Positions 6,430 through 45,360 of a stretch of DNA of 57,935 bases are shown piece after piece. Numbering within the stretch: the first letter of the stretch is position 1; each line of letters starts with the position of its first letter. The DNA comes from an uncultured Planctomycetales bacterium. Lineage in GTDB: Bacteria > Omnitrophota > Gorgyraeia > Zapsychrales > Fredricksoniimonadaceae. The translations under genes and the position numbers were made by a program. The notes below the pieces were generated by a model. It was not told the origin of the DNA. It saw only the letters and a list, made by a program, of their open reading frames with translations, and did no database searches. The stretch spans positions 1 to 57,935 of the forward strand of contig CAZFNI010000002.1 in assembly GCA_964520655.1 (NCBI GenBank), given 5' to 3'.

Positions 6430-6433
6430 AAAT

Positions 6434-7699: not shown

Positions 7700-7718
7700 A
7701 AATTAACCTTTAGTCTAT

Positions 7719-9432: not shown

Positions 9433-9433
9433 A

Positions 9434-26271: not shown

Positions 26272-26304
26272 TTGAGTTTTTATTATAACAAAAGGGATAT
26301 TATT

Positions 26305-28735: not shown

Positions 28736-28738
28736 AAC

Positions 28739-30733: not shown

Positions 30734-31217
30734 GTAGATGCCCAGCTAAAAAGTCCAGGATAAAAAAAACATTGTGGGTTTTCCCCAGCACATATTTACC
30801 ATTTTCCAGCCTGATATCCCCGGAACCCTGAAGTCTCTTTAATCTGTTATCCAAGATGACCCGTTCATTATATTGGTCAAGGATCTCCTCGCGTGTTTTG
30901 CCCTGGACTGCGGTGGAAATCTCCCTGATCAGTCTCATGCGGATCGATGTCTCAAAAGGTCCAAAAATACATAGGATATAGACAAAAGCACTTAATCCGT
31001 AAATCCCTAAAGACATAATTAACGGGAAAAAAGTCAATTTGAATATAAGCAATGTCACGAGAATAAGAAATACCGCGGCCCCTGCGAATGTGGCAATGAT
31101 CCCTTGAAATAGCTTCTCATCTTTCAGGCGCCGAAAGGTAATAAAATGCGCAGCCAAAAAAATTAAGAAAGATAAAACCGAGGATAAAACGATCGCGATA
31201 TCTGTATTGGATGCCAT
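30711..31217 (-). CDS. Hypothetical membrane protein with a C-terminal ~55-aa soluble module (paralogue B)
   Basis: I prefer the ATG at 31217 (MASNTDIAIV...), which overlaps the upstream TAA by 1 nt (TAATG). It has three to four TM helices, then KTREEILDQYNERVILDNRLKRLQGSGDIRLENGKYVL. Confidence 0.45.
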   Translation of the reverse strand: MASNTDIAIVLSSVLSFLIFLAAHFITFRRLKDEKLFQGIIATFAGAAVFLILVTLLIFKLTFFPLIMSLGIYGLSAFVYILCIFGPFETSIRMRLIREISTAVQGKTREEILDQYNERVILDNRLKRLQGSGDIRLENGKYVLGKTHNVFFILDFLAGHLHGLIHKP

Positions 31218-31696
31218 TAGCCACCCACCCCTCGTCCTAAGATCTTTCCAAAGATCTCTAGAAATGATGCCAGTGTCGCCCCTGAAGGCGTCAAAGCATA
31301 ACGATCTCTCAATGTCCTGACGCATCCGCTCTCAACCAACTCATCCAAACGAGATCCAACCAGATTCTCCTTCTTAAGAAAACTCAATAATTCTTCATAA
31401 GTCAACCCTGACGATTGAGATAATGATTTAAGGATCTTTTTAGAGGGACTGACCAATTCTGTCGTGACATACACGATCAAATACATTGGGAGAAGCAAAA
31501 CGTAGAATAATACTGATGTCCACAACAGAGGCAGAGACAACACCACCCCTAACAAGATCAGCAGGAGAAGTCCACCGCCGCTGATCTGCATGAACAACTT
31601 CCCTTTGAGGTTCTTAACAGGACTCATATAACAAAACAGGACATGGAGGAGCGCCGCCATAATAAATATCAAAAATGAAAGAATGATGGTGATCAT
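31217..31696 (-). CDS. Hypothetical membrane protein with a C-terminal ~55-aa soluble module (paralogue A)
   Basis: 159 aa. It has three to four TM helices, then LTYEELLSFLKKENLVGSRLDELVESGCVRTLRDRYAL, which aligns with the neighbouring ORF (shared RL..L..SG.(V/I)R....Y.L). Confidence 0.45.
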   Translation of the reverse strand: MITIILSFLIFIMAALLHVLFCYMSPVKNLKGKLFMQISGGGLLLLILLGVVLSLPLLWTSVLFYVLLLPMYLIVYVTTELVSPSKKILKSLSQSSGLTYEELLSFLKKENLVGSRLDELVESGCVRTLRDRYALTPSGATLASFLEIFGKILGRGVGG

Positions 31697-31706
31697 ATCG
31701 GATCAG

Positions 31707-32423
31707 CTATTTTGAAGGCCAATAAATATCCCTTGTCAGAACAACAATGGTTGTGATAACAGCTTTAATGCTTTTAAAATTCAACGCTTTTGATCTATCG
31801 TGTTTGCGCCCGATGTGTTCAAAATAGATCGTCTTATAGCTTCGACCTGCCCTTAATAAACGGATAATGCATTCAGCCAACGCTGCCAATCCTGTGGATT
31901 TGATCGGAATGGATTGCAGCAAGTCTCGACGGCAAATGAAAGCGCCATTGTAATATTTCAACTTTAGGCCAAATATAATGTTCATTAAGCCAACGAACAT
32001 CCAGGACAAGAATCGTCTTAAATATGAACGGCGATCCGTTTTTCTCATGTAAGAAATGACAATGTCCGCCTGGCCTCTGGCAAGAACCAGGTCTTTTAAC
32101 GACTGTGCAGCCATGTCATTGTCGCCGGGAAAGACCGTAACAAAATCTTTGGTCGTCATCTTAACGCCCCGCGCGAAGGAATAACCAAAACCCTGATTGC
32201 TGGCATTGACGGCCACGCGGATATTAGGGTTCGCTTCGGCCTTGATCCTGGCGAACTCACCTGTCTTATCAGGACTCCCGTCGTCAACAACAATGATCTC
32301 ATAATCAGCAACGACAGAAGAAACAGCAGCTACCGCATTCTCGATAGCCGCCTCAATATTCTCTTCTTCTCGAAAAGCCGGAATGACAACACTAACGCTC
32401 TTATTGGAATGATCAATGGACAT
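31707..32423 (-). CDS. GT2 polyprenyl-phosphate glycosyltransferase (GtrB/CsbB/DPM1-like)
   Basis: 238 aa. Has VSVVIPAFREEENI and EIIVVDDGSPDKTGE (DxD region). The size and lack of a TM-rich C-terminus are typical of this subgroup. Confidence 0.8.
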   Translation of the reverse strand: MSIDHSNKSVSVVIPAFREEENIEAAIENAVAAVSSVVADYEIIVVDDGSPDKTGEFARIKAEANPNIRVAVNASNQGFGYSFARGVKMTTKDFVTVFPGDNDMAAQSLKDLVLARGQADIVISYMRKTDRRSYLRRFLSWMFVGLMNIIFGLKLKYYNGAFICRRDLLQSIPIKSTGLAALAECIIRLLRAGRSYKTIYFEHIGRKHDRSKALNFKSIKAVITTIVVLTRDIYWPSK

Positions 32424-33456
32424 TGTTCGTTCTTAAAATTATGCGCCCTGCCTCACCTTGTGCCAGGACAGCGAATGCTTGGTTAATTGCTTCAAGATCG
32501 AATCGGTGAGTGATCATCTTGTCGAAAGAAAGCCTGCCGGAAGAAAAATCCCGGACATATTTAGGGATATCCCGGTCCGGAAGGGATTCTCCGCCCCATG
32601 TTCCTACGATCCGTTTTCCTTTGATCAGATCAAATGGATGCAAAGAGATCTTTTCATCTTTGCTTAAATTACCAGCAATGACGCAAATACCGCTTTTTTC
32701 CTTTACTGAAGCGAATGCATTTTCCATCGCCTGCTTATTACCTGAAGCATCTACGGCATAATCCAGCCCTTGGGGAGTTATCTTAGCGATCTCCTCCAAT
32801 AGATCAGGAGATTTTGCATTCAAGGTATGCGTCGCCCCCAGATGCTTGGCAAAATCCAGTTTTTTCTGTTCAATATCGATCGCAATAATCGTCTGACATC
32901 CTCTACGCTTCGCCCCCAGAACGACACTTAGACCAATCCCGCCGACACCAAAAACCGCGACTGAAGAACCTTTCTGAGCCATCAATGTATTGCCCATGAT
33001 CCCGCATCCCGTCAGGATCGCGCACCCTAAGATCGACGCGACATCAGGACTAATGGACTTGGGGATCTTCGTCACCCGGTTCTCAGACACTATGGTCACA
33101 TCGGCAAAGGTTGTCACACCGCCGGCGTTGATCGTTTGGCCGTTTAGCTTATATTGACTATTGATCCCGTCTAAGCCTTCACCCTTGATCCAGGACAGGC
33201 AGACATAATCATCCTTTTTGACCTTGGTCACACCAGGCCCAATGTCGATCACGATCCCTGATGCTTCATGGCCGAGTAAATGCGGCAAGAATTTATCCGG
33301 GCCTTTAAGCCCGATCATTTCGTTATACTGTGCGCGGCAAATGCCTGTATATAAGACAGACACCAACACCTGCCCCCTTTTTAATGCGGGGACCTCAACA
33401 TCGTCGAGAACAAGGGGTTTATGTAATTCCCAAAGGATAGCGGCTCGTGTCTTCAT
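32413..33456 (-). CDS. Zinc-dependent medium-chain alcohol dehydrogenase
   Basis: Has GICRAQ...LGHEASGIV (catalytic Zn ligands) and GVGGIGLSV (NAD fold). The start at 33456 (MKTRAAIL) abuts the upstream stop. Confidence 0.85.
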   Translation of the reverse strand: MKTRAAILWELHKPLVLDDVEVPALKRGQVLVSVLYTGICRAQYNEMIGLKGPDKFLPHLLGHEASGIVIDIGPGVTKVKKDDYVCLSWIKGEGLDGINSQYKLNGQTINAGGVTTFADVTIVSENRVTKIPKSISPDVASILGCAILTGCGIMGNTLMAQKGSSVAVFGVGGIGLSVVLGAKRRGCQTIIAIDIEQKKLDFAKHLGATHTLNAKSPDLLEEIAKITPQGLDYAVDASGNKQAMENAFASVKEKSGICVIAGNLSKDEKISLHPFDLIKGKRIVGTWGGESLPDRDIPKYVRDFSSGRLSFDKMITHRFDLEAINQAFAVLAQGEAGRIILRTNNVH

Positions 33457-34109
33457 GGAATAAACCAATAAAAATCACCGGTATAACCAACTTCCTGAAA
33501 GAGCCTCTTCCAGGCATCGACATGCATATATGTCAAGGCAGTCAGGTTCCAGGCATCCATGCGTTCTTTTTCCTCCGGGGTACGATACGCATCCATAGTG
33601 ATAAAGGAACCTTTGCGGGCAATACGCTGGATCTCACGTAAGGATTGTTTGCATTCTTCAAGAGGCAAATTATGGACTGTGTTGATCGAGATCACCACAT
33701 CAAAACTTTTATCAGGAAAAGGCAGTTTCTTGGCATCCCCCTGGCGGACAAATGGCTTGACCTGTTCTAGTGTATGATCAATGGCATATTGGGAAATATC
33801 AATGCCAGCAACCTTGATCCCTGGGACAGCCAGCATAAGGTCGTAAAGCATGAACCCTTTGCCGCTGCCGACATCCAGTACGGAACTATTCTTTGTTAAA
33901 CCAAAATGTTCAATGAACGTAGGCATGACCGGCTGCCAGAACCGCGCATTATAATTATAACCGCCATAGCCAAATCGGCGGTCACCGTCGAAATACTCCT
34001 GACCAAATTGACGGCCGATGCGGCGGTCCTCTTCTGTTTTCTCCTGTCCGCGTTCGTGGACATTGCGTTTTGTTTTTGGGTAGTTGACAAGAAGGTCGAT
34101 CTCAGCCAT
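33453..34109 (-). CDS. Class I SAM-dependent methyltransferase
   Basis: Has VLDVGSGKGFM (motif I) and FDVVISINTVHNL. Confidence 0.8.
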   Translation of the reverse strand: MAEIDLLVNYPKTKRNVHERGQEKTEEDRRIGRQFGQEYFDGDRRFGYGGYNYNARFWQPVMPTFIEHFGLTKNSSVLDVGSGKGFMLYDLMLAVPGIKVAGIDISQYAIDHTLEQVKPFVRQGDAKKLPFPDKSFDVVISINTVHNLPLEECKQSLREIQRIARKGSFITMDAYRTPEEKERMDAWNLTALTYMHVDAWKRLFQEVGYTGDFYWFIP

Positions 34110-35865
34110 TTTCGGACACTTTCATGATAGCTTTTAATTCTTCAGGTTGAAGTTTAGGGTTCAGGTCTTCCAATCCGGAACCAAATTTTAACATCGGCTC
34201 GATCTTCTGATCAGGGTCGATCATGAGTTCGCAGACAACAGGGCCAGATGTTGTCAGGACCTTCTTTATCCCTGATCGAAGTTCCTGATGGTTGGCAATG
34301 CGTACCGCAGGTAATCCAAACGCTTCCGCAGTTTTAATAAAATCTGGAAAACATAAACCAGTTTTCTGGTCGACAGCCGCATAATTGGAATTTAGCCATG
34401 TATCCATGGTCTGTTTCTGGATGGCGTGACCGTCATTGCTGAAAATAAACACTTTCACATTCATGTTATAACGCCGTATGGTTGCCAACTCTTCGATATT
34501 CATCATCAGCCCGCCATCGCCCGTCAAACACAATACCCTTGGCGCGCCTGCGGCGATAGCTCCCACACTCGCGGATAACGCATACCCCATCGGTGTATGA
34601 TTCCAGGCAGAGAACATCCGCTGCCCCAGCTTCATCTCAACAGCCTGAAGCGTCCAGGAAATATTGGCACCTGTATCCGTTATGTACACGTCACTGGCAT
34701 CAGAAGCCTTGGAGATCTCTTTTACAAAAACATGCCCGTCGACAAAATCCTTACGGTCATATTTAGAAGCCGGACAAATGGGATACTGCTTCTCCCATTG
34801 CCTGATCTGCGCCCGCCACTGTTCATAACGGTCCTGTTTGTCTCCAGCCAATGAGATCATCAGTTTGAAGAACAACGGCAATGGCGATTGAATGCCCATG
34901 TCCAACTTGAAATCATTTTGGGTGAACTTATTTAGTTCATGAGGATCAATATCAATGAGCACCTTTTTAGCTTTTGGGGCGAATAATGTTGTTTTTCCTC
35001 CCGTGATCATTTGGGAAAGCCTGGTTCCGGCTCCTATGATCAAATCCGCGTTCTGGGCGGCAAAATTCCCCCAGCGCGGTCCTACGACACCCAGACCTCC
35101 CATATTCAGAGGATCATCATGCGCCATGATGTCTTTACCGCCCCACGTCAACAGGACAGGGATACCCTGGTGACGGGCAAAATTCAAAACCGGCTCTATC
35201 GCATGCGCGATCCGGATACCGGCACCCAGGATCAAGACCGGTCTTTTCGCGCGCTTGATCAATGTCATTAACTGACTGGCTTGATCCGTGCATTCGGTAT
35301 AATGTTCTTTCGCAGGAACAGGGAATTCCCTCAACTGGCTGACATCAATATCCGAGCGCTGCAGATCATCAGGAATGTCCAGCATCACGGGTCCAGGACG
35401 TTCATGGGTGGCGATGTAGATGGCCTTCTGCAGTTCATATTTGATGTCGTATGGGTCCATGATCCGCACCGAATACTTGGTGATTGAGGAGAACAACGAA
35501 ACAACATCAGTTTCCTGGAAACCCTTCTGGCGCAATTGATCACTGGGACGCAGCCTCGGTGTCGTTACCTGGCCACAAATGAACAAACAGGGAATGGAAT
35601 CAAAATAAGCGTTGCAAATGCTTGTCGTCAAATTCGTCGCCCCTGGACCAGAGGTGACCATGACCGTGCCGACCTTGCCGCTCACGCGCGAATACGCATC
35701 GGCCGCCGCACCGCCGGCCTGTTCATGCTGGACACAAATATACTGCATGTCCGGATGCCGCGCGACCGAATCAATGGAATGGATAATTGCACCGCCGGAC
35801 ACAACGAACACATGCTTGATCTCCTGCGCATGCAGGAATTGTACAATATAATCCGCTAGTTTCAT
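34102..35865 (-). CDS. Thiamine-diphosphate enzyme of the acetolactate-synthase/YerE type
   Basis: 587 aa with three domains. Has TSGPGATNL, and GDGGLMMNIEELATIRRYNMNVKVFIFSNDG (ThDP GDG-x24-NN motif). Confidence 0.9.
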   Translation of the reverse strand: MKLADYIVQFLHAQEIKHVFVVSGGAIIHSIDSVARHPDMQYICVQHEQAGGAAADAYSRVSGKVGTVMVTSGPGATNLTTSICNAYFDSIPCLFICGQVTTPRLRPSDQLRQKGFQETDVVSLFSSITKYSVRIMDPYDIKYELQKAIYIATHERPGPVMLDIPDDLQRSDIDVSQLREFPVPAKEHYTECTDQASQLMTLIKRAKRPVLILGAGIRIAHAIEPVLNFARHQGIPVLLTWGGKDIMAHDDPLNMGGLGVVGPRWGNFAAQNADLIIGAGTRLSQMITGGKTTLFAPKAKKVLIDIDPHELNKFTQNDFKLDMGIQSPLPLFFKLMISLAGDKQDRYEQWRAQIRQWEKQYPICPASKYDRKDFVDGHVFVKEISKASDASDVYITDTGANISWTLQAVEMKLGQRMFSAWNHTPMGYALSASVGAIAAGAPRVLCLTGDGGLMMNIEELATIRRYNMNVKVFIFSNDGHAIQKQTMDTWLNSNYAAVDQKTGLCFPDFIKTAEAFGLPAVRIANHQELRSGIKKVLTTSGPVVCELMIDPDQKIEPMLKFGSGLEDLNPKLQPEELKAIMKVSENG

Positions 35866-36539
35866 TTAACCCCCACACCCATCCCAAAAATATAATGACA
35901 CATCGGAGCGTACCCTGTGTGCAGAACCTCATCATTCATCCCGAACATGAACACGCGCTTGAAATATTTCTCCATCAGCGCTTTCAACGTTTTTTGGCTG
36001 TGCAAATTGATGTGCTGAACACGGCTGCGTTCTGAAGCATACTCATTAGCCGTGATATTCGGTGTGCCAATGATGCAAACACCGTCTTTTTTCAAGATCT
36101 GCGCCTGGCTTCTGACAAAAGGATCATTTAAATGTTGGTCCAAATGCTCGATCACATCAATGGAATATGCCCCGTCGAATTTACCCTTCGGCAGTTTCAG
36201 GTCCTGGATCGTCCCGCAGCGGAATTCAACATTCTTGATCTTGGCCAGTCTTTTTTTATTGCTTTCAATGTGCCGGGCATCCGGCTCGATCGCCAAGACT
36301 TTGTTAACATGCTGGGCCACGATCGGTGTACCGAAGGCATCCCCGCAGCCCACTTCGATGGCAGAATCAAACCCATCAAACATTTTCGCCGGGAATTTAT
36401 AACGGGACAAGACAAACCCCATATGTTTTGGATCATGTAGAAGACTGTAGGAGGTCCATGGCCCCAGATCGATCGAGTCAATGAATTGATAATCTGTTCC
36501 TAAACGGTATGCTTCCTGCTGAGATATTTTCTTTGCCAT
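35862..36539 (-). CDS. Class I SAM-dependent methyltransferase
   Basis: Has AIEVGCGDAFGT (motif I) and FDGAYSIDVIEHL. Confidence 0.75.
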   Translation of the reverse strand: MAKKISQQEAYRLGTDYQFIDSIDLGPWTSYSLLHDPKHMGFVLSRYKFPAKMFDGFDSAIEVGCGDAFGTPIVAQHVNKVLAIEPDARHIESNKKRLAKIKNVEFRCGTIQDLKLPKGKFDGAYSIDVIEHLDQHLNDPFVRSQAQILKKDGVCIIGTPNITANEYASERSRVQHINLHSQKTLKALMEKYFKRVFMFGMNDEVLHTGYAPMCHYIFGMGVGVK

Positions 36540-36553
36540 AGCGCTCTTTCTTT

Positions 36554-37366
36554 CTATTGCAGGAAGGTATTGCCTTGCCTGCGTAATTTATACATATCAG
36601 CGTCCTTAAGCAACGCCTTGACCAACCTATCCCTGGTCTTCTCCTTCCAGGGATCATATACGATAGAGAAATTCCTCCCAGAAACCACACTTTTGCCCTG
36701 CGCGCGCAGCCATTCTATGCTGTTAAAAATATCCTCGAGCGGCGTACCTTCCTTTTCCTTTAGAAAATCTTTAGTCTCTTTCACCTTCGCTTTTGCCGTT
36801 CGCTTGTCGCTTAAGATCGTGTGATGGATCTTGGTCTTCGTCCACCCAGGGCCGACTATAAAAATATTCATATCCTTATTTTCCGCATCTAAAAACTCGC
36901 ACATCTTGGCCAGCATGATCTTTGAGACAGTATAGGCGGAAAAATTAAGAACTGTGCCGTTCATGCCGCCTCCGGCAAAAAGGATAACGTCGCTGACAAC
37001 TTTATTGCGGAACGGATAAAGCGCATGAAGCGCCTGCAATTGAGCTAAACAATTCGTATTGACTGACGCAGACCATTCCTCAAAGTCGCTTTCAAAAAAA
37101 GGCACAACAGGCAAAGGATGCCCAACGCACGAAATAAAAACATCCCAGGTCGATCCATTCTTTTTAAATCTTGCTGCCAGAGCTTTGATATCTTTAGATC
37201 GGGACACGTCGCATTTGATCAATACGCAATTCTTGTTCGCGCGCAGATCTTTTAAATGAAGGTCACTGCGGTATGTGCCAATGACCTTAAAACCTGAATC
37301 CAGATAACGTCTTGCCAGATCAAGACCAATATCGCTGCTTATGGACAATATAAAAACAGTGCGCAT
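36554..37366 (-). CDS. SDR-like oxidoreductase (atypical glycine motif)
   Basis: 270 aa. Has ILSISSDIGLDLA at the N-terminus and YTVSK (Tyr-x3-Lys). Confidence 0.65.
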   Translation of the reverse strand: MRTVFILSISSDIGLDLARRYLDSGFKVIGTYRSDLHLKDLRANKNCVLIKCDVSRSKDIKALAARFKKNGSTWDVFISCVGHPLPVVPFFESDFEEWSASVNTNCLAQLQALHALYPFRNKVVSDVILFAGGGMNGTVLNFSAYTVSKIMLAKMCEFLDAENKDMNIFIVGPGWTKTKIHHTILSDKRTAKAKVKETKDFLKEKEGTPLEDIFNSIEWLRAQGKSVVSGRNFSIVYDPWKEKTRDRLVKALLKDADMYKLRRQGNTFLQ

Positions 37367-38400
37367 TAATAGGGACCAACAAAAGTATCTGCCGCTTTTT
37401 CCTTAAAGTCGAACTTGTCCTTGCGTTCCAAAAGCTCATAGGCCGCAGCGATGAGCGTCTCAAAATTTGGATAGAATGCTTCTTCTAATGGCTTTGATAC
37501 CGGACAGGGTGACTCGGGCCAGGTGATACGCTTCACAGGTGCTTTTAGGGAACTAAACGCTTTATCTGCAGCGATGGCGGCGACTTCGGAGGCAAACCCA
37601 CATTTAGCCCAGCTGGTATCCGCCGCGATCAACCTTCCTGTTTTGGTGACAGATCGGATGATCGCTGCTTCATCAAGCGGCGTGATCGTGACTGGATCAA
37701 TGATCTCCATGCTGATCCCAACCTTTTCTAACTGCTCGGCGGCTTTCTGGGCTTGATCAACCATCCAGGAAGTAGCCACAACCGTCACATCTTTCCCAGG
37801 ACGAACAATACGGGCGACCCCAAAAGGAATGGTGTAATATTCTTGCGGCACCACCGACTTTAGATCATACAAAGACCTGTGCTCTAATATCGCCACAGGC
37901 GAATCACTTTTAAGGGATTGCAGAATGATCCCTTTGATATCACAGGCATTGCTTGGCATGGCCACGATCAATCCAGGAAAATGCGCCAGGATAGATTGAA
38001 TGCTTTGGGAATGCGTCGGCCCTTGTCCCCACCCTTTGCCGATGATCCCGCGTACCACGATCGGTACAATGGACTTCCCCGCATAGGTATATTTCCATTT
38101 AGCGGCGTTATTGATCATTTGATCAAGGGCCAGGAACATGAAATCATTACGCGCGTGTACTAAGACTGGACGCTTTTTATTAAGTGCGGCACCGATGGCA
38201 ACACCTGTCAATGCGTTCTCTGAAGCAGGCGTATCAAACACGCGGGTTGAACCAAATTTTAAAAATGCTTCCCTGGTCGTGTTAAAGATCCCTTTATAAT
38301 CATCGACCCCAAGCCCAAAGATAAACACATTGGGATCTTTCTCCATTCCCTGACAAAGAGCTTCACTGATCGCCTGAGCATATGTGATCTCACGGTTCAT
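37366..38400 (-). CDS. 2-oxoacid dehydrogenase/transketolase-type E1 component, beta subunit
   Basis: 344 aa. Has REITYAQAI.EAL, FGLGVDD, VFDTPASENA and a transketolase C-terminal domain. Confidence 0.9.
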   Translation of the reverse strand: MNREITYAQAISEALCQGMEKDPNVFIFGLGVDDYKGIFNTTREAFLKFGSTRVFDTPASENALTGVAIGAALNKKRPVLVHARNDFMFLALDQMINNAAKWKYTYAGKSIVPIVVRGIIGKGWGQGPTHSQSIQSILAHFPGLIVAMPSNACDIKGIILQSLKSDSPVAILEHRSLYDLKSVVPQEYYTIPFGVARIVRPGKDVTVVATSWMVDQAQKAAEQLEKVGISMEIIDPVTITPLDEAAIIRSVTKTGRLIAADTSWAKCGFASEVAAIAADKAFSSLKAPVKRITWPESPCPVSKPLEEAFYPNFETLIAAAYELLERKDKFDFKEKAADTFVGPY

Positions 38401-38401
38401 A

Positions 38402-39358
38402 TCAATACACCGACCTTAATAATTCCTCAGTATCCGGCCATGGGCTTGCTAATGCCCTCTGATAGGCTTCGTCTGAACGTTTTGACCATTTTAGATTCAA
38501 CGCATCAATATCTGTTTGTGACAGGATCTTTTCCTTGATAAGCTTTTCGCTAAACCTCTTGATCGGGCACTTTGCCATCCAGGAATCCACTTCCTCTTTT
38601 GTTCGGTATCCCCTGTCATAATCAAACAGCGGACCCACATGTTCCCGAAAACGATAGGTCAAGCATTCAACAAATTGAGGTTTTTGTTCCTTACGTATCT
38701 GCTCAATGACGCGATGTAATGTCTCGTAAACCAGCTCCACATCATTACCGTCGATCTGTGTTGTCTTCAGGTCCGGAGACGATAAACGTTTATAGATCGC
38801 AGAAGGCGGCTGACGAACGCCTAAGGGAGAATGCGTCGAATAAAGGTTGTTCTCACATAAAAACAGGACTGGTAGCTGTTTTGCTAATGCAAAATTCACG
38901 CTTTCGGGAAAAGCCCCCTCCTCGATCGTGGCATCACCAAAAATAGATACCGCAACATTATCTTTACGGTCCATTTTAAACGACAAGGCCGCCCCTACAG
39001 CCACTGGGATCATCGCGCCTAAGATCGGCGATGAATAAATGTGCACGGATGGATCCGTTAAATGCGCTGACCCCGCCCTGCCTCGTGATATACCCGATAC
39101 CCGTCCGCATAATTCCGCAAAAAAACCATCGAAATCACCGCCCTTGGCCAAATAGGCCGCATGGCATCGGTGGCCGGTAAATATCTGGTCATCAAGACGC
39201 AGCGCCAAAGACAACCCCGCTGCTACTGCCTCTTGCCCAATGGACAAATGGGTGGGCGTTTTCATCATTTGTTCTTTAGCATACACAGCAACGATCTTTT
39301 CTTCCGCCTGACGGATCTTGATCATTTGCTCTAGCAACTGGTGCTTGATCTGACTCAT
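38402..39358 (-). CDS. ThDP-dependent E1 component, alpha subunit
   Basis: 318 aa. Has GQEAVAAG, and GDATIEEGAFPESVNFALAKQLPVLFLCENNLYS (ThDP-binding motif). Confidence 0.9.
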   Translation of the reverse strand: MSQIKHQLLEQMIKIRQAEEKIVAVYAKEQMMKTPTHLSIGQEAVAAGLSLALRLDDQIFTGHRCHAAYLAKGGDFDGFFAELCGRVSGISRGRAGSAHLTDPSVHIYSSPILGAMIPVAVGAALSFKMDRKDNVAVSIFGDATIEEGAFPESVNFALAKQLPVLFLCENNLYSTHSPLGVRQPPSAIYKRLSSPDLKTTQIDGNDVELVYETLHRVIEQIRKEQKPQFVECLTYRFREHVGPLFDYDRGYRTKEEVDSWMAKCPIKRFSEKLIKEKILSQTDIDALNLKWSKRSDEAYQRALASPWPDTEELLRSVY

Positions 39359-40350
39359 TGTAAATTAACCGCCTGCATGGTCTTGATATTGTAATATTTG
39401 TTATCTGTCATAGAATTTGGTACTTTACCGGCTTCAAAAGCTTTGCGCAGATCAACGACCGCGTCCGCGATCGTATGTTTTGGTTTAAACCCAAGTTCTT
39501 TCAATATCTTCTCAGAAGAAATGTGATAGGAACGGTTGTCATTGGTCGGTTCAACCACAATTTCGATCGAGGGCCGATCCAGATTGTCTTTGACCATTTG
39601 TGCGATCTGGCTGACCGAATGGTTCTCATAACCGGCATTGAATATTTTACCGGCGATCTTTTCAGAAGGGTATTTCAAGGATTCTATATAAAGATCGGTC
39701 ATGTCCTCAATATGAATGTTAGGACGTTTCTGTCCGCCGCCAAACACCTTGATGCGGTTATTATTGATCGCATGATTGGTCAAGATATTAACGGTAAGGT
39801 CCAAACGCAAACGCGGTGAATATCCGCAAACCGTCGCGGGACGTAAGATCAATACCGTAAAATCTTTCGTCTGCTCTTTGAGCAAAACATCTTCGCATAA
39901 GGCCTTATATTTAGAATAATCCGTCAAGGGCTCAAGAGGAAGGTCTTCAGTCACATTGGGTGTTTCTTTAACACCGTACACACTGGAACTGGACGCATAA
40001 ATAAAGCGCTTGACCTTGTTCTTTTTGGAAATAGCGACCAGAGGCAAAAAAGCGTCATAATTGATCGTTTTGGCCAGGTTAGGGTTTAGTTCATAACTGG
40101 GGTCATTGGAAATACACGCCAGATGGATCACCGCATCAGTGCCCGGGATATGTTTTTCCAGCAATTGCACATCACGTATATCGCCTTTGATGCAGGTTAG
40201 ATTAGGATCTTTGGCGACAGATGGGAATACATCTTCTCCGTAAAGAAAAAGATCCAATACTTTCACTTGATACCCCGCCTTTAATAGCTTGGGGATCAAT
40301 ACCGCTCCAACGTAACCAGCCCCACCCGTGACAAACACGTTCTTGATCAT
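39355..40350 (-). CDS. NAD-dependent sugar-nucleotide epimerase/dehydratase (extended SDR)
   Basis: Has VTGGAGYVGAVL and YSKYK (YxxxK). The start at 40350 (MIKNVFVTGG) gives a 4-nt overlap with GT9. Confidence 0.85.
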   Translation of the reverse strand: MIKNVFVTGGAGYVGAVLIPKLLKAGYQVKVLDLFLYGEDVFPSVAKDPNLTCIKGDIRDVQLLEKHIPGTDAVIHLACISNDPSYELNPNLAKTINYDAFLPLVAISKKNKVKRFIYASSSSVYGVKETPNVTEDLPLEPLTDYSKYKALCEDVLLKEQTKDFTVLILRPATVCGYSPRLRLDLTVNILTNHAINNNRIKVFGGGQKRPNIHIEDMTDLYIESLKYPSEKIAGKIFNAGYENHSVSQIAQMVKDNLDRPSIEIVVEPTNDNRSYHISSEKILKELGFKPKHTIADAVVDLRKAFEAGKVPNSMTDNKYYNIKTMQAVNLQ

Positions 40351-41273
40351 GATAAAAACTCCTTGCACTTGCGGGCAACATCCGCAGGTAAAATAAAATT
40401 CATACAAAAATCTTTATTGGTGCAATACGGCATATAACACGGCATTTGATGGCAATTGGCAGTTGACGCGATGACTTCCACATTGGGGATCCCCTGCATG
40501 CGCAGGTAATTCGTCGGCCCATACAATGTAATGACCTTCTTGCCTAACGCCTGCCCGATCGCCTGTCCCAGCGAATCAGATGTGACAATAATACGACAGC
40601 TGTCGATCCATTCAATATATTTTGTTAAATTCTTGTGTCCCTGCTGCCAGGAGACCGTATACCCCTTTTGCAGCAGCATTTCCAACTTTTTCCAGTGATC
40701 CATAGGCCACGCTTTTGTCGGCCATTTGCTGCCGACCGAATGGTTGAAACCGACATCATATTTGATCCGCGTCCTGCGTTTGTTCCCCAGGATCAGTCCC
40801 TGACCATTCCACTTCTTCCCCACCGTCTCAAACAATAATTCCAACGCATTCTTTGGAATATCCCTCTGATTCTCCTGTCCGGATAATAAATACCGCGTAG
40901 ATCTCTTGCGCGTTGTGATCTGATGGGATTTATCATTAAAATAAAAACCATACTTCTTCTTAGACACAATGCCGTTGATCATCGTACAGATCCCGATGTC
41001 TTTCTCAAGATTGATCAAGACATCAAACTGCTCCTGCATCAGATCATGCACGGTTTTTGTGCTAAAGATCAATAACCTGTTTATATATGGATTAAACTTA
41101 AGGAGTTGTTTAGCTTGCCAGTCTGTGAGCCAGACCACCTCATCATTCTTATAAACATGAAGAAGGGCTGTACATATCAGAACATCCCCCAGACTGACCG
41201 TTGTAGAAATGCCCCTATCAAGAAACTCAGAAAACCCTGTTTTAATGATGAGAACTTTTTTTTGTTGTTTCAT
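40347..41273 (-). CDS. GT9-family glycosyltransferase (heptosyltransferase-like)
   Basis: Has KVLIIKTG...SLGDVLICTALL at the N-terminus and SDSLGQAIGQALGKKVITLYGPTN near the C-terminus, both GT9 hallmarks. Confidence 0.7.
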   Translation of the reverse strand: MKQQKKVLIIKTGFSEFLDRGISTTVSLGDVLICTALLHVYKNDEVVWLTDWQAKQLLKFNPYINRLLIFSTKTVHDLMQEQFDVLINLEKDIGICTMINGIVSKKKYGFYFNDKSHQITTRKRSTRYLLSGQENQRDIPKNALELLFETVGKKWNGQGLILGNKRRTRIKYDVGFNHSVGSKWPTKAWPMDHWKKLEMLLQKGYTVSWQQGHKNLTKYIEWIDSCRIIVTSDSLGQAIGQALGKKVITLYGPTNYLRMQGIPNVEVIASTANCHQMPCYMPYCTNKDFCMNFILPADVARKCKEFLS

Positions 41274-41299
41274 GAGTACATCTTTTGGATCATTGCGGA

Positions 41300-42262
41300 C
41301 TAACGGATAATGGCACCTGCAGTCGCATCCTGTTTGCCGTAGGTATTGACAACTTCTTCCACATATTCAAGGTTTGACGCATAAGGCTCGCCGATCGCGC
41401 GGATCTCAACCGATGAGTGACCATATTCCTGAAAACGGTTATTCTTTACTTTAATATCGCAAGAATTGCATTTTCCATAAACAGAACAGGGAACCCATTC
41501 ACCCAAAAGTTTAGGCGGCTGCTCATCCAATAAATGCCCAAGTGGAAAACGATTGGCGTAAAGGTCTGAATGGCAACGAAAAATATACCCGGCTGGATCG
41601 ATCAGGAATTCCGTAGTGCGGCATTCACAGCTGCGCACCATTCTGGCATTGACCGCTTCTGGATATCTCATCGTTCCATAATTAGTCCCATTATAAGGCC
41701 CCAGGAATTCTTTAAGCCTGAAATCGATCCCCATATTTTCAGCCTGTTTCTGGACTTTACGTGTTTCATCCATATATTCCGGGTGGTCAACAGCCCAAAC
41801 GCCGATGTGATACCCTTTATCCATAAAATACTTAACACGCTTAAGCAATACATCCGGGTCCTGCTGACCTCGATGGTAGGAAACACGAATAGATCCATAA
41901 GGCGCATCACGCTTTATGCGCTCTGGACCAATGTGGCTCATAAACACCTCAGGATCAACCTCTAAATTCGTCAACAGGTCAATGGGGAAATCCCCCCTTA
42001 GACCTTTGACGATCTCATAAAAATGTTTATGGACAGTCGGCTCCCCACCTTGAAACGTAATGGGAACATCCCCATTCTTAGATCGTATGCGGTTAAGACC
42101 ACGGATCCAATCTTCACCGGACATCCAGCGCTTTTTTACCAGATCACCGCCGTGATGATTAATGCAGTAACTGCAACGCAGCATGCACGCGAAAGATAGG
42201 AAAGCTGCGACATAATTGAAATTCTCAGGAAGTATGATCGGTTTCAGGTCGGTATTGGACAT
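41300..42262 (-). CDS. Radical SAM enzyme (non-B12), Cys-rich C-terminus
   Basis: Has FACMLRCSYCINH (CxxxCxxC) and ITFQGGEPT. Additional C-terminal cysteines (CECR...FRCHSD...CSVYGKCNSCD) suggest an auxiliary cluster. Confidence 0.8.
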   Translation of the reverse strand: MSNTDLKPIILPENFNYVAAFLSFACMLRCSYCINHHGGDLVKKRWMSGEDWIRGLNRIRSKNGDVPITFQGGEPTVHKHFYEIVKGLRGDFPIDLLTNLEVDPEVFMSHIGPERIKRDAPYGSIRVSYHRGQQDPDVLLKRVKYFMDKGYHIGVWAVDHPEYMDETRKVQKQAENMGIDFRLKEFLGPYNGTNYGTMRYPEAVNARMVRSCECRTTEFLIDPAGYIFRCHSDLYANRFPLGHLLDEQPPKLLGEWVPCSVYGKCNSCDIKVKNNRFQEYGHSSVEIRAIGEPYASNLEYVEEVVNTYGKQDATAGAIIR

Positions 42263-42317
42263 GGATTAATAGTAATATAAAAGAAATAAATGGGCAATAA
42301 AATAATCCAAAAGAACA

Positions 42318-44579
42318 TTATACAAATAGCGCCAGAAGAACAAATAATGTAAAGAAAAATAACACAGTGATGAAAAATCCCGCCATCAACCATGGCGGAG
42401 TGAACTTAAAATGAACCTCTGAGGCACCTTTGGGAACAACTACCCCCATAAATATATGGTCCGAAAGTACGACAGGAGATTGTTGGCCGTTGACATATGC
42501 TCTCCATCCCGAATGGAATGACTTTGGCAGCACAACCATCTTAGAGTCTGTGGCCTGGACATTAAACACAACATCATCAGACCCTTGTTCAACATAATTC
42601 CTATAAACATCATTAGTCCGCGGATAGATATTAACCCCTTTATTCAAATCTTCAGCAACTTCCTGAATGGTTCTCGTTGATGATCCATCTTTAAAGAAAA
42701 CCCTGATCGGTTCACCCTCCCTGCCCCAGATATCAAACCTGTCACCATCAATCAATTTCTTAAAATTGCGCCAGGGCAGCACCTTATGATGATCAACCCA
42801 GGAAAAATCCACGGGCCAGAAATTCGTCATGGCCTCAGTTGGCCTTTCTATCCAGTAATTCCTGATGATGCGGGAATGTTCAGGTGAGAAATGGTTCAGA
42901 TAAAATATAAAATCATTAAAATGCTTTGAAGGAATGGGAATAAATCCCGTCAAACCCTTGACACCATAAAGAAGATTATAATTATCATACACAGGCAAAT
43001 AGTAGGAAAATGGCAAAAAGAATTTGCCCGACGCGTTCTTGTAAAAATTATACTCCGGTGAGCTCATGCCAAATTGTTCTTTGGAAGTACAAAGCCCCTT
43101 ATCATTCCACATGAATGACATCCAAAATGATCGCACCCCTAAAGAGATCAAAAAACCAAATAGGGCCAGACAACAAACCCATCGCATGAATTTATGGATA
43201 CGCGGACCTAACATAAAGAACACGACGATCAGCCAATATGTTAAGGCAAGCCCCCAAAAGAACTTGTGTCCAAAGATCTTAAAACGCTCTAAAAGGAAAG
43301 GTGTGCCCGATTGGACATTCATGATCCATGCCGCCACAACCACCCACAAACAACCCGCAAGTACCAGCAAAACAGACAATGATTTCTTTCGTCGAAAGAA
43401 TCCCCAACCATCTAGACCGTGAGTCATTCGCGAGAAAACCACGACAACGATCAGTACAAGCAAAAAATCCATGTAATACACACCATAAATAAAAGAGATC
43501 TTGCTGAACAAATTCAAAAATGGCATTTGATGGGGGAAATATCGCAGCAATGTGTCAAATATAGATGGTGAGGAAAAATACAAAAGAATAGATGCTACGA
43601 TCGCAAAGAATAACTTTCTTTCACGAACATCTTTGAATATTTCCCGATAACACCCGATCGCGAAGATCAGTGCTATGATCAAAAGCATTAAAAATGTGAC
43701 AGCTGATTTGACAGAGGAGAAAACAAAGGTCGCTGCGATCATTTTAAAAAGCGACATTTCAAAATTGCCTTGTGTTGGCCATAGCGGAAAAGAATTAACA
43801 GGATAGGCTCCTTCATACCTGGCCGCTTCAAAAAGCACATTGTGTATCGTTGGAAGGATCTGTACCGCAGCCGATGAGATCGCGCCCAGGGACAAAATAC
43901 CCATGGATACAACGCTTAACCACAAAGCCCTCTTGATCGGATAATTTAGCAGCACATAAACAATGATAAATAATACTTCCCAATAAATGGTCTGAAGGAA
44001 TTGGCCCGCCCCTCCCATCAAGAACTGCAGACCTGTCGTAGCCGACATCAAAAAAAGAGCCAGGTATATATTCCTTTTTTCCCATGATAAGAACACACTT
44101 AAAGCCAGCGGCATCATCACAACACCGCTGATCATGATCGGGGTCAAGACCAGATTCCCCTGCCTTCCGATATTAAGCCCCATATAGATCAAAGCTCCAG
44201 CGATAGCGAGAGGCCAGCGGATACGAAAATGATGAACGAACAGGAAAATCGTCAGGGTCAAACCGAACACATAAGGTTCGATCAACTTGAATAGATAAAA
44301 TTGGGCGTCATTTAAGAACAATGCCGCAATATTAGTGGGAAATAAGACCGGATACGATCCTGATGTGAATAAACTTACACCGCCTAAACCTTCATCCCAG
44401 AATGTCAAATGACCGCTGCGCCATTTATGAGCGACGTCAATGATCAACCCCCAATAGACATTGCTTAATTCATTACTTGGGGTACCGTACGGAGGGAATG
44501 TTGAACGTTTCCAGAGATAGACCCCCCCCGCAAGACCAACGATCAGGCAAAGAAAAAATCTGCGGATGGTGATATTCAT
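42318..44579 (-). CDS. YfhO-like GT-C membrane glycosyltransferase (second copy)
   Basis: Polytopic. The C-terminal HSGWRAYVNGQQSPVVLSDHIFMGVVVPKGASEVHFKFTPPW plus a terminal TM helix match the family. The start at 44579 (MNITIRR) avoids overlap with terC; the track ORF extends to 44654. Confidence 0.55.
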   Translation of the reverse strand: MNITIRRFFLCLIVGLAGGVYLWKRSTFPPYGTPSNELSNVYWGLIIDVAHKWRSGHLTFWDEGLGGVSLFTSGSYPVLFPTNIAALFLNDAQFYLFKLIEPYVFGLTLTIFLFVHHFRIRWPLAIAGALIYMGLNIGRQGNLVLTPIMISGVVMMPLALSVFLSWEKRNIYLALFLMSATTGLQFLMGGAGQFLQTIYWEVLFIIVYVLLNYPIKRALWLSVVSMGILSLGAISSAAVQILPTIHNVLFEAARYEGAYPVNSFPLWPTQGNFEMSLFKMIAATFVFSSVKSAVTFLMLLIIALIFAIGCYREIFKDVRERKLFFAIVASILLYFSSPSIFDTLLRYFPHQMPFLNLFSKISFIYGVYYMDFLLVLIVVVVFSRMTHGLDGWGFFRRKKSLSVLLVLAGCLWVVVAAWIMNVQSGTPFLLERFKIFGHKFFWGLALTYWLIVVFFMLGPRIHKFMRWVCCLALFGFLISLGVRSFWMSFMWNDKGLCTSKEQFGMSSPEYNFYKNASGKFFLPFSYYLPVYDNYNLLYGVKGLTGFIPIPSKHFNDFIFYLNHFSPEHSRIIRNYWIERPTEAMTNFWPVDFSWVDHHKVLPWRNFKKLIDGDRFDIWGREGEPIRVFFKDGSSTRTIQEVAEDLNKGVNIYPRTNDVYRNYVEQGSDDVVFNVQATDSKMVVLPKSFHSGWRAYVNGQQSPVVLSDHIFMGVVVPKGASEVHFKFTPPWLMAGFFITVLFFFTLFVLLALFV
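44522..44529 (-). repeat. G8 homopolymer inside codons 17-20 of the YfhO-like gene
   Basis: The plus strand reads a-cccccccc-g. The coding strand reads GCG GGG GGG GTC (A G G V). Confidence 0.95.
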
Positions 44580-44589
44580 AAAAAGCAAA

Positions 44590-45360
44590 TTAATGGTTAA
44601 CAGCCTTCTTATCCCTGATCGATAAAAGAACAGCTCCAACCAATACAAAAACAATGAATATCAACTTGAGTTGGACGCTGATAACAAGCACATGTTCTAA
44701 AAGCATGGTGGCTCCGACAAAGACAAGGATCATGCCCAGAGCATAATGCAAATATGTGAACATCGGCATGACCGCAGCCAAGGCAAAATACATTGCCCGG
44801 AGCCCAATGATCGCGAAAACATTAGACGTCCAAACGATGAATGGATCCTTCGTGATCGCAAATATGGCAGGGATCGAATCCAACGCAAATAATAGATCCG
44901 TCACCTCAACGATGATCAATATGACGATCCAAGGTTTTAATTGAGGAAAATGTTTACGACAGAAGACCAGGATCTGATTATCCTGCATATGGACATCTTT
45001 TTCTTTCTCCACGAACATTTTGATACCCATCACCACCAGGAAGAACCCCAGAATATAAAGCAACCACGAGAACATGGTGATCAGTTTGATCCCAACAACG
45101 ATCAATACCGCCCTCATCAACTGCGCTCCCCAAACACCCCATGTCAGGATCCTCGCCTGCTCCTTGGATTCGCATTTAAAATACTTGAAAATAAGCAGGA
45201 ACACGAAGATATTATCAACACTCAGAGATATTTCGATCAAATATCCCGTTAAGAATTCGAGAGCTTTCTGTTGTCCATAAAAGACATATATACCCACATT
45301 AAATGCCATTGCCGCCAGCACCCAGAGTGTGCTAATGATGATCGCTTTGCGTACGTTCAT
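44590..45360 (-). CDS. TerC/Alx-family integral membrane protein
   Basis: Has EISLSVDNIFVF and VEVTDLLFALDSIPAIFAIT, the duplicated TerC motifs. Confidence 0.85.
   Translation of the reverse strand: MNVRKAIIISTLWVLAAMAFNVGIYVFYGQQKALEFLTGYLIEISLSVDNIFVFLLIFKYFKCESKEQARILTWGVWGAQLMRAVLIVVGIKLITMFSWLLYILGFFLVVMGIKMFVEKEKDVHMQDNQILVFCRKHFPQLKPWIVILIIVEVTDLLFALDSIPAIFAITKDPFIVWTSNVFAIIGLRAMYFALAAVMPMFTYLHYALGMILVFVGATMLLEHVLVISVQLKLIFIVFVLVGAVLLSIRDKKAVNH

Follow-up and report, generated by a model that had tools for sequence, protein, structure and literature searches.

The window analyzed here is a stretch of 57,935 nucleotides (C2:1-57935) from the 2.31-Mb genome of an uncultured Omnitrophota bacterium, which is assembled in 50 contigs and is 96% complete. 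A co-directional unit of minus-strand genes runs from position 44654 down to 26305 of this window, and adjacent genes in it either share 1-23 nt or lie no more than 55 nt apart. An initial annotation, made from the sequence alone, had described a contiguous co-directional gene set at 32413-42262. Its ten genes are all present at these positions on the minus strand, and both the coordinates and the families are borne out by the list of open reading frames (ORFs) and by Pfam. The packing of the genes between 44654 and 26305 shows that this block is the tailoring half of a longer unit. The larger operon (26.3-44.7 kb) also holds a family 2 glycosyltransferase (GT2), two small membrane proteins, and three GT-C enzymes. 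We consider it likely that the block makes up the tailoring portion of an operon for an envelope glycan. It would produce an acyl-branched and methylated nucleotide sugar, most likely based on a heptose, with two kinds of thiamine diphosphate (ThDP) enzymes as branchers, one YerE-type and one of the alphaKADH2 type. That the block encodes a C-branched sugar pathway is highly probable. Heptose is slightly favored as the substrate, and the action of both carboligases on one sugar is a tentative proposal that we regard as doubtful.

The YerE/JanthE-like ThDP enzyme (34102-35865, 587 aa) carries the Pfam domains TPP_enzyme_N, TPP_enzyme_M, and TPP_enzyme_C. Its best match in the PDB is JanthE of Janthinobacterium sp. 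HH01 (8rph, with 8rpi and 8rpj as further entries; 331 bits over residues 2-563). The best acetohydroxyacid synthase (AHAS) reaches about 263 bits, and catabolic acetolactate synthases reach only 110-143 bits in the same sequence search. JanthE is a YerE-like aldehyde-ketone carboligase that couples 2-keto acids to ketones to form tertiary alcohols (PMC12188165). Since its physiological substrate is reported as unknown, JanthE says nothing about the sugar used here. In alignments, the catalytic Glu (HEQ) is kept in both the window enzyme and JanthE. The RFDDR stretch of AHAS, which binds the acceptor keto acid, is missing in both (TRLSQM in the window enzyme, TRLAIP in JanthE). At this position, Arabidopsis AHAS has RFDDR and the genome's own IlvB has RWDDR. 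The two enzymes differ in the ThDP motif, which is a canonical GDG (GDG-x-NDG) in the window enzyme but CDG in JanthE. The closeness to YerE-like enzymes as a whole is not uniform, because 5ahk, which we take to be PpYerE, scores 262 bits, level with AHAS.

The best NCBIfam name of the ThDP enzyme is acetolactate synthase large subunit. However, TIGR00118 gives 403.3 bits against an equivalog cut-off of 538.35, and the other AHAS models also stay below their cut-offs. The genome encodes three TPP_enzyme_N proteins, namely IlvB, a MenD-like protein, and the window enzyme. We read the MenD-like protein as MenD because its neighbors are a chorismate-binding enzyme and a UbiE-type methyltransferase. 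The true IlvB (574 aa; C2:170709-172433) is followed directly by IlvN, the pair extending to 172945, and it is 30% identical to the window enzyme. The window gene has no adjacent IlvN. Its neighbors are methyltransferase genes, and its start overlaps the stop of the methyltransferase gene MT1 by 4 nt. With a separate IlvB/IlvN pair, 30% identity, and AHAS scores below cut-off, the enzyme is not the bona fide IlvB that would have counted against the initial annotation. The YerE-type reading of the initial annotation gains support from the JanthE match, from a conserved adjacent reductase, and from sister loci that resemble the erwiniose system. In a quick maximum-likelihood tree, the orthologue-class ThDP enzymes form one clade (30 rows; SH-like approximate likelihood ratio support 98), and more distant, second-tier ThDP enzymes form a clade of six (support 100). 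IlvB and MenD lie outside these clades on very long branches, and the root of the tree is not reliable. Among 40 relatives, orthologues of 59-90% identity occur in about 12 genomes and second-tier enzymes of 35-43% identity in six, and an IlvB-like match at about 30% identity occurs in nearly all. Metagenome-derived proteins include at least 120 clusters that are at least 54% identical to the window enzyme, none of them characterized.

The second ThDP enzyme of the block is a pair of an E1alpha-like subunit (38402-39358; Pfam E1_dh, 173.5 bits) and an E1beta-like subunit (37366-38400; Transket_pyr and Transketolase_C). The ThDP motif of E1alpha is intact (GDA-x26-NN). The best NCBIfam names are pyruvate dehydrogenase (PDH) E1alpha and E1beta, but both scores are below the cut-offs (TIGR03182, 260.2 against 393.85 bits; NF006667, 286.4 against 321 bits). 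No E2 or E3 domain is found among the 57 window ORFs scanned, as the initial annotation had noted, and the pair is also an orphan in the wider genome. The single genomic E2 (PF00198) is on contig C6, flanked by an AceE-type homodimeric E1 of 895 aa on one side and an E3 on the other. This complex is thus self-sufficient without the window pair. Likewise, no E2 or E3 was seen in the related loci that were annotated. With its intact ThDP motif, its lack of E2/E3 partners, and its position among sugar-nucleotide tailoring genes, the pair is, by analogy, a candidate alphaKADH2-type sugar C-brancher.

The 2.3-Mb genome contains only two E1 pairs, the window pair and another on contig C22. The window E1alpha is 40-45% identical to the E1alpha of loci in other phyla and 35% identical to its C22 paralogue; for E1beta these values are 44-47% and 31%. 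Across phyla, the ThDP-linked E1s share 40-51% (alpha) and 44-55% (beta) identity with one another, as opposed to 32-35% and 28-31% with the C22 pair. Since the cross-phylum identity exceeds the identity to the C22 pair, the ThDP-linked E1 pair is a distinct orthologous group that moves with the module. The C22 pair is itself an orphan and lies in a classical nucleoside diphosphate (NDP)-aminosugar cluster (C22:114-9771). The genes of this cluster encode a DUF2079 membrane protein, a 4,6-dehydratase, an NTP_transferase protein, a DegT aminotransferase, a methyltransferase, E1alpha, E1beta, a hexapeptide acyltransferase, and a GT2. It looks like an alphaKADH2-type pathway for a branched aminosugar without a YerE-like enzyme.

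A species-level genome collection yields 35 related loci, in other Omnitrophota, in Chlamydiota (ThDP enzyme 51-55% identical), in Verrucomicrobiota (43%), and in one Woesearchaeota metagenome-assembled genome (MAG; 55%). The chlamydial hosts are environmental Chlamydiota, relatives of Simkania and the Parachlamydiales. For counting, 23 non-redundant loci were used, each at least 12 kb long with a ThDP gene at least 43% identical to that of the window; shorter loci and six duplicate records were excluded, and the window was not counted. The 23 loci are mutually related and the counts are thus not independent, but the loci span four phylum-level groups with differing gene orders. The classical short-chain dehydrogenase/reductase (SDR) gene is the most constant companion (20/23), either immediately next to the ThDP gene or with only MT1 in between. 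An E1 pair is present within 10 kb of the ThDP gene in 16 of the 23 loci, and one further locus, L093, has an alpha-beta fusion. The second methyltransferase gene, MT2, occurs in 15 loci, the extended SDR gene (at 44% identity or more) in 13, and MT1 in 12. The zinc-dependent alcohol dehydrogenase (Zn-ADH) gene, usually beside MT2, is found in nine loci, as are a kinase/nucleotidyltransferase (HldE-like) fusion and a GT2 of the Omnitrophota type. The family 9 glycosyltransferase (GT9) and radical S-adenosylmethionine (SAM) genes are each present in four, all in Omnitrophota. Glycosyltransferases and sugar-nucleotide genes are present in every related locus that was annotated.

The initial annotation regarded the presence of both ThDP types in one locus as unusual. 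Instead, the combination is a module conserved across phyla. The co-location of the ThDP gene and the E1 pair is more than chance, because it is seen in 16 of the 23 loci and as one fusion although the window's own genome has only two E1 pairs. In the Woesearchaeota MAG, the fusion (L093:18252-20345) is a 697-aa protein with E1_dh, Transket_pyr, and Transketolase_C domains. It lies near the ThDP orthologue of 55% identity, a B12-radical SAM gene, and a radical SAM/SPASM gene. In Omnitrophota, the locus occupies a fixed site between MoaC/TerC and phosphorylase/ThyA genes, and its content varies by cassette. The smallest version, L026, consists of SDR-MT1-ThDP-GT2 and two small membrane proteins. 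Such variation at a fixed site suggests that the glycans are under diversifying selection, as O-antigens are.

The link to heptose comes from the extended SDR (39355-40350; Pfam Epimerase, 120.5 bits). Its ORF extends to 40407, but the start is most likely Met20 at about 40350. The GxxGxxG and YxxxK motifs are present. The best PDB match, at 155 bits over residues 20-331, is 6vo6, which we take to be Cj1427, while the next best match, like the hexose epimerases and dehydratases, does not exceed 98 bits. From this similarity, we propose that the extended SDR may be a nucleotide-heptose C4 dehydrogenase that makes the keto acceptor. Orthologues of 53-61% identity stand beside heptose-activation-like genes in Chlamydiota, and 7 of 11 chlamydial loci have the orthologue beside GmhA-, HldE-, and GmhB-like genes and a transaldolase gene. 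In the chlamydial and verrucomicrobial loci, the set ThDP-SDR-E1alpha-E1beta-MT2 is accompanied by genes for a transaldolase, a SIS-domain isomerase, and a HAD phosphatase. A fusion of a cytidylyltransferase-like domain with a PfkB kinase (503-634 aa) and a 4,6-dehydratase-like SDR are found in the same loci. The best NCBIfam matches of the chlamydial activation genes are HldE/rfaE domains I and II, GmhA, and GmhB, and the transaldolase passes its NCBIfam cut-off. In Omnitrophota, the GT9 gene directly adjoins the extended SDR gene in all four loci that have the latter.

The initial annotation found neither a nucleotidyltransferase nor a clear 4,6-dehydratase and left the precursor unclear. 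The window has no heptose-activation gene of its own, but the genome holds such genes elsewhere. Contig C26 encodes GmhA and a heptose-1-phosphate adenylyltransferase (RfaE domain II), both over their cut-offs, and contig C1 carries a GT9 lipopolysaccharide (LPS)-core cluster. The precursor is thus probably a nucleotide-heptose made elsewhere in the genome. The keto group would probably come from the extended SDR acting as a C4 dehydrogenase and not from a 4,6-dehydratase. No paper linking heptose with YerE-type or E1-type branching was found among the literature matches listed.

Two further observations concern sugar genes in other loci. In the HldE-like fusions, the domain order is reversed relative to NCBIfam HldE, with the nucleotidyltransferase at the N-terminus and the PfkB kinase at the C-terminus, and all score below the rfaE cut-offs (L082:3521-5071, L077:10660-12192, L092:2510-4414, L084:4906-6417, L080:4207-5790, L030:17673-19214, and L031:4099-5718). 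Outside the window, the same genome also has a long O-antigen-type locus (C3:143819-162910, L097) with GT4 and GT2 genes and a Wzy-like protein. It further encodes a SIS isomerase, a transaldolase, an HpcH/HpaI aldolase, a HAD phosphatase, an FkbM methyltransferase, two SDRs, a CMP-type cytidylyltransferase (CTP_transf_3), a D-2-hydroxyacid dehydrogenase, a 4,6-dehydratase, and an NTP_transferase protein. This locus is possibly a pathway for an unusual keto-deoxy sugar acid.

Acyl-branched LPS sugars are formed by a YerE-like ThDP enzyme together with an NAD(P)H reductase encoded next to it (Steitz et al. 2022, PMC9306805). The SDR-MT1-ThDP core described here has the same layout, in an envelope-glycan locus, as YerE/YerF for yersiniose A, ErwE/ErwF/ErwI/ErwJ, MMAR_2332, and MyGE. 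Longer branches, as in erwiniose, need an additional pyruvate aldolase and acetaldehyde dehydrogenase (ErwI/ErwJ), and a putative cluster of Rhodopseudomonas palustris also carries a SAM methyltransferase (PMC9306805). The ErwE/ErwF/ErwI/ErwJ architecture is reproduced in two aldolase-bearing sister loci. L032 has a DmpG/DmpF-type pair right beside a second-tier ThDP gene, and L033 has an HpcH aldolase together with an acetaldehyde dehydrogenase in the corresponding place. The likeness is judged by gene layout, and there are differences. The known YerE-type enzymes branch CDP-3,6-dideoxy-4-keto-glucose (PMC9306805), whereas the CDP-dideoxyhexose gene set is absent here and the neighbors point to heptose and a ketone made by a dehydrogenase. 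Moreover, the known systems use one ThDP enzyme, and an E1 pair is added here.

According to a 2025 review (PMC12247030), three ThDP superfamilies branch keto-sugars at C3 or C4, namely YerE-like enzymes in LPS, E1alpha/beta enzymes of the alphaKADH2 superfamily, and split transketolases. The alphaKADH2 branchers covered there act in the biosynthesis of aldgamycin, kosinostatin, kibdelomycin, paulomycin, and avilamycin, mainly specialized metabolites, and the split transketolases in that of miharamycin and amipurimycin. AviB1/AviB2 and Pau11/Pau12 are proposed as sugar branchers in another report (PMC4753412). As described in these two sources, the alphaKADH2 enzymes use pyruvate to place an acetyl branch on C3 or C4 of a keto-sugar. 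The window pair resembles AviB1/AviB2, Pau11/Pau12, the aldgamycin pair, and KbDH-alpha/beta in that it is an E1 pair without E2/E3 among sugar-nucleotide tailoring genes, a likeness of gene context. However, those pairs belong to secondary-metabolite clusters of Gram-positive actinomycetes without a YerE-type enzyme, while the pair here is part of an envelope-glycan operon in bacteria of the Planctomycetes-Verrucomicrobia-Chlamydiae group and is accompanied by a YerE-like enzyme. The window operon contains the first two ThDP types, and sister locus L028 also holds a split transketolase.

The capsular heptose pathway of Campylobacter jejuni offers a parallel for the extended SDR. There, Cj1427 is described as an extended SDR that oxidizes C4 of a nucleotide-heptose without dehydration, which makes the sugar accessible to later tailoring (PMC10680097). 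The 4-keto-heptose of C. jejuni is only epimerized and reduced back, with no C-C bond formed. The nucleotide may also differ, since it is GDP in C. jejuni and the HldE/RfaE-like genes of the related loci suggest ADP.

Among the other tailoring enzymes, the atypical classical SDR (36554-37366; Pfam adh_short) has SISSDIG in place of TGxxxGxG and keeps Y145xxxK, which bears out its earlier description as atypical. It matches BudC weakly (38.6 bits against a cut-off of 270). By analogy with the known systems, it may be a YerF/ErwF-like reductase of the acyl branch. MT1 (35862-36539; Methyltransf_11, 56.1 bits) and MT2 (33453-34109; Methyltransf_25/11, about 72 bits) are class-I SAM methyltransferases. 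The oxidoreductase of the Zn-ADH family (32413-33468; ADH_N and ADH_zinc_N) is below all NCBIfam equivalog cut-offs. The GT9 protein (40347-41273, 308 aa) has no transmembrane segment. It passes the Pfam cut-off (Glyco_transf_9, 49.7 against 22 bits), but the NCBIfam models of LPS heptosyltransferases I-III give only about 20 bits, and it is a very divergent member of the heptosyltransferase family. MT1, the radical SAM enzyme, and GT9 gave only faint matches in PDB sequence searches.

The radical SAM enzyme (41300-42262, 320 aa; Radical_SAM, 43.7 bits) has a CX3CX2C motif at C26/C30/C33, and five cysteines of its C-terminal part, C214, C230, C259, C265, and C268, are invariant in 40 homologues. 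The Pfam SPASM model does not match the protein. In comparisons with its AlphaFold2 model (pLDDT 86.7), DesII (Z 14.8), SkfB (14.4), SuiB (14.2), MoaA (14.2), and BtrN (13.3) are tied, CteB is also among the matches, and the Foldseek TM scores are 0.51 or lower. By its cysteines and the fold of the model, the enzyme belongs to the SPASM/twitch class, without a clear closest member. Because the scores are tied, no specific reaction can be assigned, although several of the matched enzymes act on sugars or nucleotides. A role of the block in hopanoid or lipid synthesis was considered and rejected, as matches to HpnA, HpnB, and HpnH are far below cut-off and the conserved neighbors are sugar-nucleotide genes.

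The remaining genes of the operon, again all on the minus strand, may concern the transfer of the sugar. The first gene of the unit encodes a YfhO-like GT-C membrane glycosyltransferase (42318-44654, 778 aa; YfhO, 35.4 bits) with 12 hydrophobic segments, which is absent from the same-genus locus L024. Downstream of the block and outside the range initially annotated lies a soluble GT2 (31707-32423, 238 aa; Glycos_transf_2, 71.9 bits). Its best NCBIfam matches are of the ArnC, PgfS, and PpgS types, all far below cut-off, and we propose that it may be a polyprenyl-phosphate sugar synthase. GT2 follows the tailoring genes in eight of the nine Omnitrophota loci. Next come two paralogous small membrane proteins (30711-31696) of 159 aa and about 168 aa. 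For the latter, the start of ORF 30711-31325 is most likely 31217. Each has two or three N-terminal hydrophobic segments and a soluble tail, and they are 25% identical to each other. Neither has a Pfam or NCBIfam match, and an atlas search returned only 'hypothetical' clusters. They also follow GT2 in L026, L027, L028, L032, L073, L075, and L076. The unit ends with a second YfhO-like GT-C (28739-30733; YfhO, 25.9 bits, below the cut-off of 28.5), a protein with TPR repeats (27815-28735), and a PMT-like GT-C (26305-27849; PMT, 29.6 bits). These two GT-Cs have 9-14 hydrophobic segments.

The genes at 26305-30733 are proposed to form a periplasmic transfer module. Together, GT2, the small membrane proteins, and the three GT-Cs resemble lipid-carrier glycosylation outside the membrane. 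In three-component periplasmic glycosylation, a GtrB/CsbB-type GT2, a small membrane protein, and a YfhO/ArnT-like GT-C act together, and a short GT2, small membrane proteins, and YfhO/PMT-type GT-Cs are likewise present here. The small membrane proteins differ from the GtrA family in that they have no Pfam match and are a pair of paralogues with soluble tails. In addition, there are three GT-C genes, and the carrier-lipid role of GT2 is putative.

RNA data are consistent with expression of the operon. They come from two studies of wastewater and sludge with four RNA libraries in all, assembled into short contigs. Those that match at 99% or more reach 26 of the 30 bins of the locus in the best run (X1) and bridge eight gene junctions, from that of the radical SAM and GT9 genes to that of the MT2 and Zn-ADH genes. 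Three bins (27294-27940, 31176-31822, and 41528-42174) have no RNA cover in any of the four runs, which is uninformative because the contigs are short. The RNA contigs thus lend some light support to operon expression, short of proving a single transcript. A promoter and terminator scan of 25600-45500 was no better than shuffled sequence (49 promoter-like elements against 41.1 ± 5.8; 26 terminator-like elements against 20.4 ± 4.4), and it therefore says nothing about the limits of the operon.

A pathway can be outlined from these assignments. A nucleotide-activated heptose would be made elsewhere in the genome and oxidized to a keto-sugar without dehydration by the extended SDR, as by Cj1427. 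The ThDP enzyme would decarboxylate a 2-keto acid, probably pyruvate, and add the acyl anion to the ketone of the ring, which would turn it into a tertiary alcohol that bears an acyl branch. The atypical SDR would then reduce the ketone of the branch, the role of YerF/ErwF, and MT1 would carry out a methylation. The E1 pair may act as a second carboligase of the alphaKADH2 type and add a further two-carbon unit, either at another keto position of the same sugar or on a second sugar. This product may be processed by the Zn-ADH/MT2 cassette. The SPASM/twitch radical SAM enzyme could perform an oxidation, deoxygenation, or epimerization. Finally, the product would be passed on by the GT9-like transferase, or loaded on polyprenyl phosphate by GT2, or both, and the YfhO/PMT-type GT-Cs would attach it outside the membrane. 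The initial annotation had likewise described a locus for a C-branched or methylated sugar installed by GT9 and the GT-Cs. Its pathway part is supported by genome context, the JanthE match, and synteny, and the acceptor may be the LPS core or another one.

Several observations weigh against this reading. No heptose-activation gene lies within the window, and the heptose-family matches of the related loci are below the curated cut-offs (rfaE_dom_I, 124 against 345; GmhA, about 80 against 209; GmhB, 106 against 178), so that the activated sugar could be another ketose-derived sugar. A literature search returned no relevant paper that would confirm 6vo6 as Cj1427. The E1 pair keeps the alpha 'REH' and beta 'HSQ' histidines, which in true E1s serve lipoyl transfer. 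Its sequence alone therefore does not mark it as a non-dehydrogenase, and the argument is one of context. The polyprenyl-phosphate role of GT2 draws on weak matches (52.8 bits for the ArnC model against a cut-off of 529). The minimal locus L026 has neither the E1 pair nor the Cj1427-like SDR, six of the 23 loci have no E1 within 10 kb of the ThDP gene, and no ThDP enzyme of the YerE type accompanies the E1 pair of the C22 cluster. The cassettes are thus separable, which means that the two carboligases need not share one sugar and that the ThDP step does not require this dehydrogenase. As for expression, the RNA contigs carry neither strand nor level, and DNA carry-over is possible.

The same separability is the basis of an alternative that we regard as unlikely but worth serious weight, in which a mosaic locus makes two independent mono-branched sugars. 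A YerE-like cassette (SDR-MT1-ThDP) and an E1 cassette (extended SDR-E1alpha-E1beta with MT2/Zn-ADH) would then act on different sugar nucleotides. Consistent with this, L026, L027, and L065 have the ThDP gene without E1, the aminosugar cluster on C22 has the reverse, content varies at the fixed site between MoaC/TerC and phosphorylase/ThyA, and the operon has two delivery routes, one through GT9 and the other through GT2 and the GT-Cs. However, the occurrence of both enzymes together in 16 of the 23 loci, across four phylum-level groups and in differing gene order, and the separate orthologous group of the ThDP-linked E1s point to a shared task. The chlamydial loci also have only one nucleotide-activation module beside both enzymes. 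A substrate other than heptose is quite improbable. It might be a 4-keto-6-deoxyhexose nucleotide, supplied by rml- or gmd-type genes elsewhere in the genome, or a sugar that GT2 has linked to polyprenyl phosphate. L026 has neither a Cj1427-like SDR nor activation genes, at least four 4,6-dehydratase-like genes and eight NTP_transferase matches occur across the genome, and both the substrate of the known YerE-type enzymes and the low heptose-family scores fit such a sugar. Against it stand the lead of 6vo6 over all hexose epimerases and dehydratases among the matches of the extended SDR, its orthologues beside heptose-activation-like genes in chlamydial loci, and the adjacency of GT9 in the four Omnitrophota loci.

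Readings outside sugar metabolism are far weaker. Synthesis or degradation of acetoin or butanediol by an acetolactate synthase, an AcoA/B-like E1, an SDR, and a Zn-ADH, placed by chance among glycosyltransferases, is highly improbable. All four enzyme classes do occur in such pathways, the SDR has its weak BudC match, and the 2025 review places Ao:DCPIP oxidoreductase in the alphaKADH2 superfamily (PMC12247030). However, no E2, E3, or acetolactate-decarboxylase-type match is found among the window ORFs, and catabolic acetolactate synthases score far below JanthE. Furthermore, the set is conserved with sugar-nucleotide genes across phyla, and its start and stop codons overlap with those of glycosyltransferase genes. 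That the genes are spare copies of central metabolism, namely an additional AHAS isozyme along with a heterotetrameric PDH E1 working with the E2/E3 of C6, is extremely improbable. The best NCBIfam names and the existence of one E2 and one E3 in the genome would agree with it, but the scores fall short of the equivalog cut-offs (403 vs 538, 260 vs 394, and 286 vs 321). The ThDP gene lacks the IlvN that the true IlvB has, and its product lacks the RFDDR stretch. Its orthologues are also patchy (about 12 of the 40 relatives), in contrast to the near-universal IlvB-like matches, and the E2/E3 genes of C6 already have an AceE-type E1 alongside.

As summarized in the 2025 review (PMC12247030), C-branching of sugars by ThDP enzymes has been described for YerE-type enzymes, in the LPS of a few cultured bacteria, and in a different setting for E1-type enzymes, in antibiotics of actinomycetes. 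The locus family described here unites both in one conserved envelope-glycan module, probably acting on heptose, in lineages that are almost entirely uncultured. If the preferred reading of an acyl-branched and methylated heptose is true, a new kind of higher-carbon branched sugar is predicted, and metagenomes could be searched for such sugars by a sequence signature. New carboligases that accept ketones would be gained as well, a group of enzymes in demand as biocatalysts for chiral tertiary alcohols. A bolder form of this reading, somewhat unlikely as a whole, posits a class of sugar not described before. This would be a methylated heptose with two ThDP-installed branches, one YerE-like and one E1-type, or with one branch extended twice, and a lipid carrier would take it to the cell surface. 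Such a pathway would either be ancestral to Omnitrophota, environmental Chlamydiota, and Verrucomicrobiota or have been exchanged widely between them. All three ThDP sugar-branching chemistries would meet at one hypervariable surface-glycan site, where split transketolases and pyruvate aldolases are also recruited.

Some related loci show further variation around the ThDP gene. L029:2607-8410 has a tandem arrangement SDR-MT1-ThDP'-MT1-ThDP, in which two ThDP enzymes, one of the second tier (36%) and the other of the orthologue class (59%), each have their own MT1. In L027:10951-19992 and in L070, the E1/SDR/MT1 cassettes are replaced by an ORF of more than 3000 aa, with AAA_5 as its only match, immediately upstream of the ThDP gene. 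The second-tier ThDP enzyme of L031 (8218-10896) is 892 aa long with about 290 extra N-terminal residues, and its gene is followed by an altronate/galactarate dehydratase-like gene.

Other genes of the window lie apart from the glycan operon. Two ketoacyl-synthase genes, a gene for a DUF4440 protein, a ketopantoate-reductase-like gene, and a B12-binding radical SAM gene are located at 5197-10906. Another gene for an extended-SDR epimerase/dehydratase (19122-20093, 323 aa) is about 6 kb from the operon and adjoins two unannotated genes (17874-19111). As for the hosts, the records titled 'uncultured Planctomycetales bacterium' (L062, L063, L065-L067, L069-L072, L074, and L076) are syntenic with the Omnitrophota locus and 64-88% identical to it. 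Some of them duplicate contigs of relatives from the genus and family of the window, and the titles are probably taxonomic mislabels.

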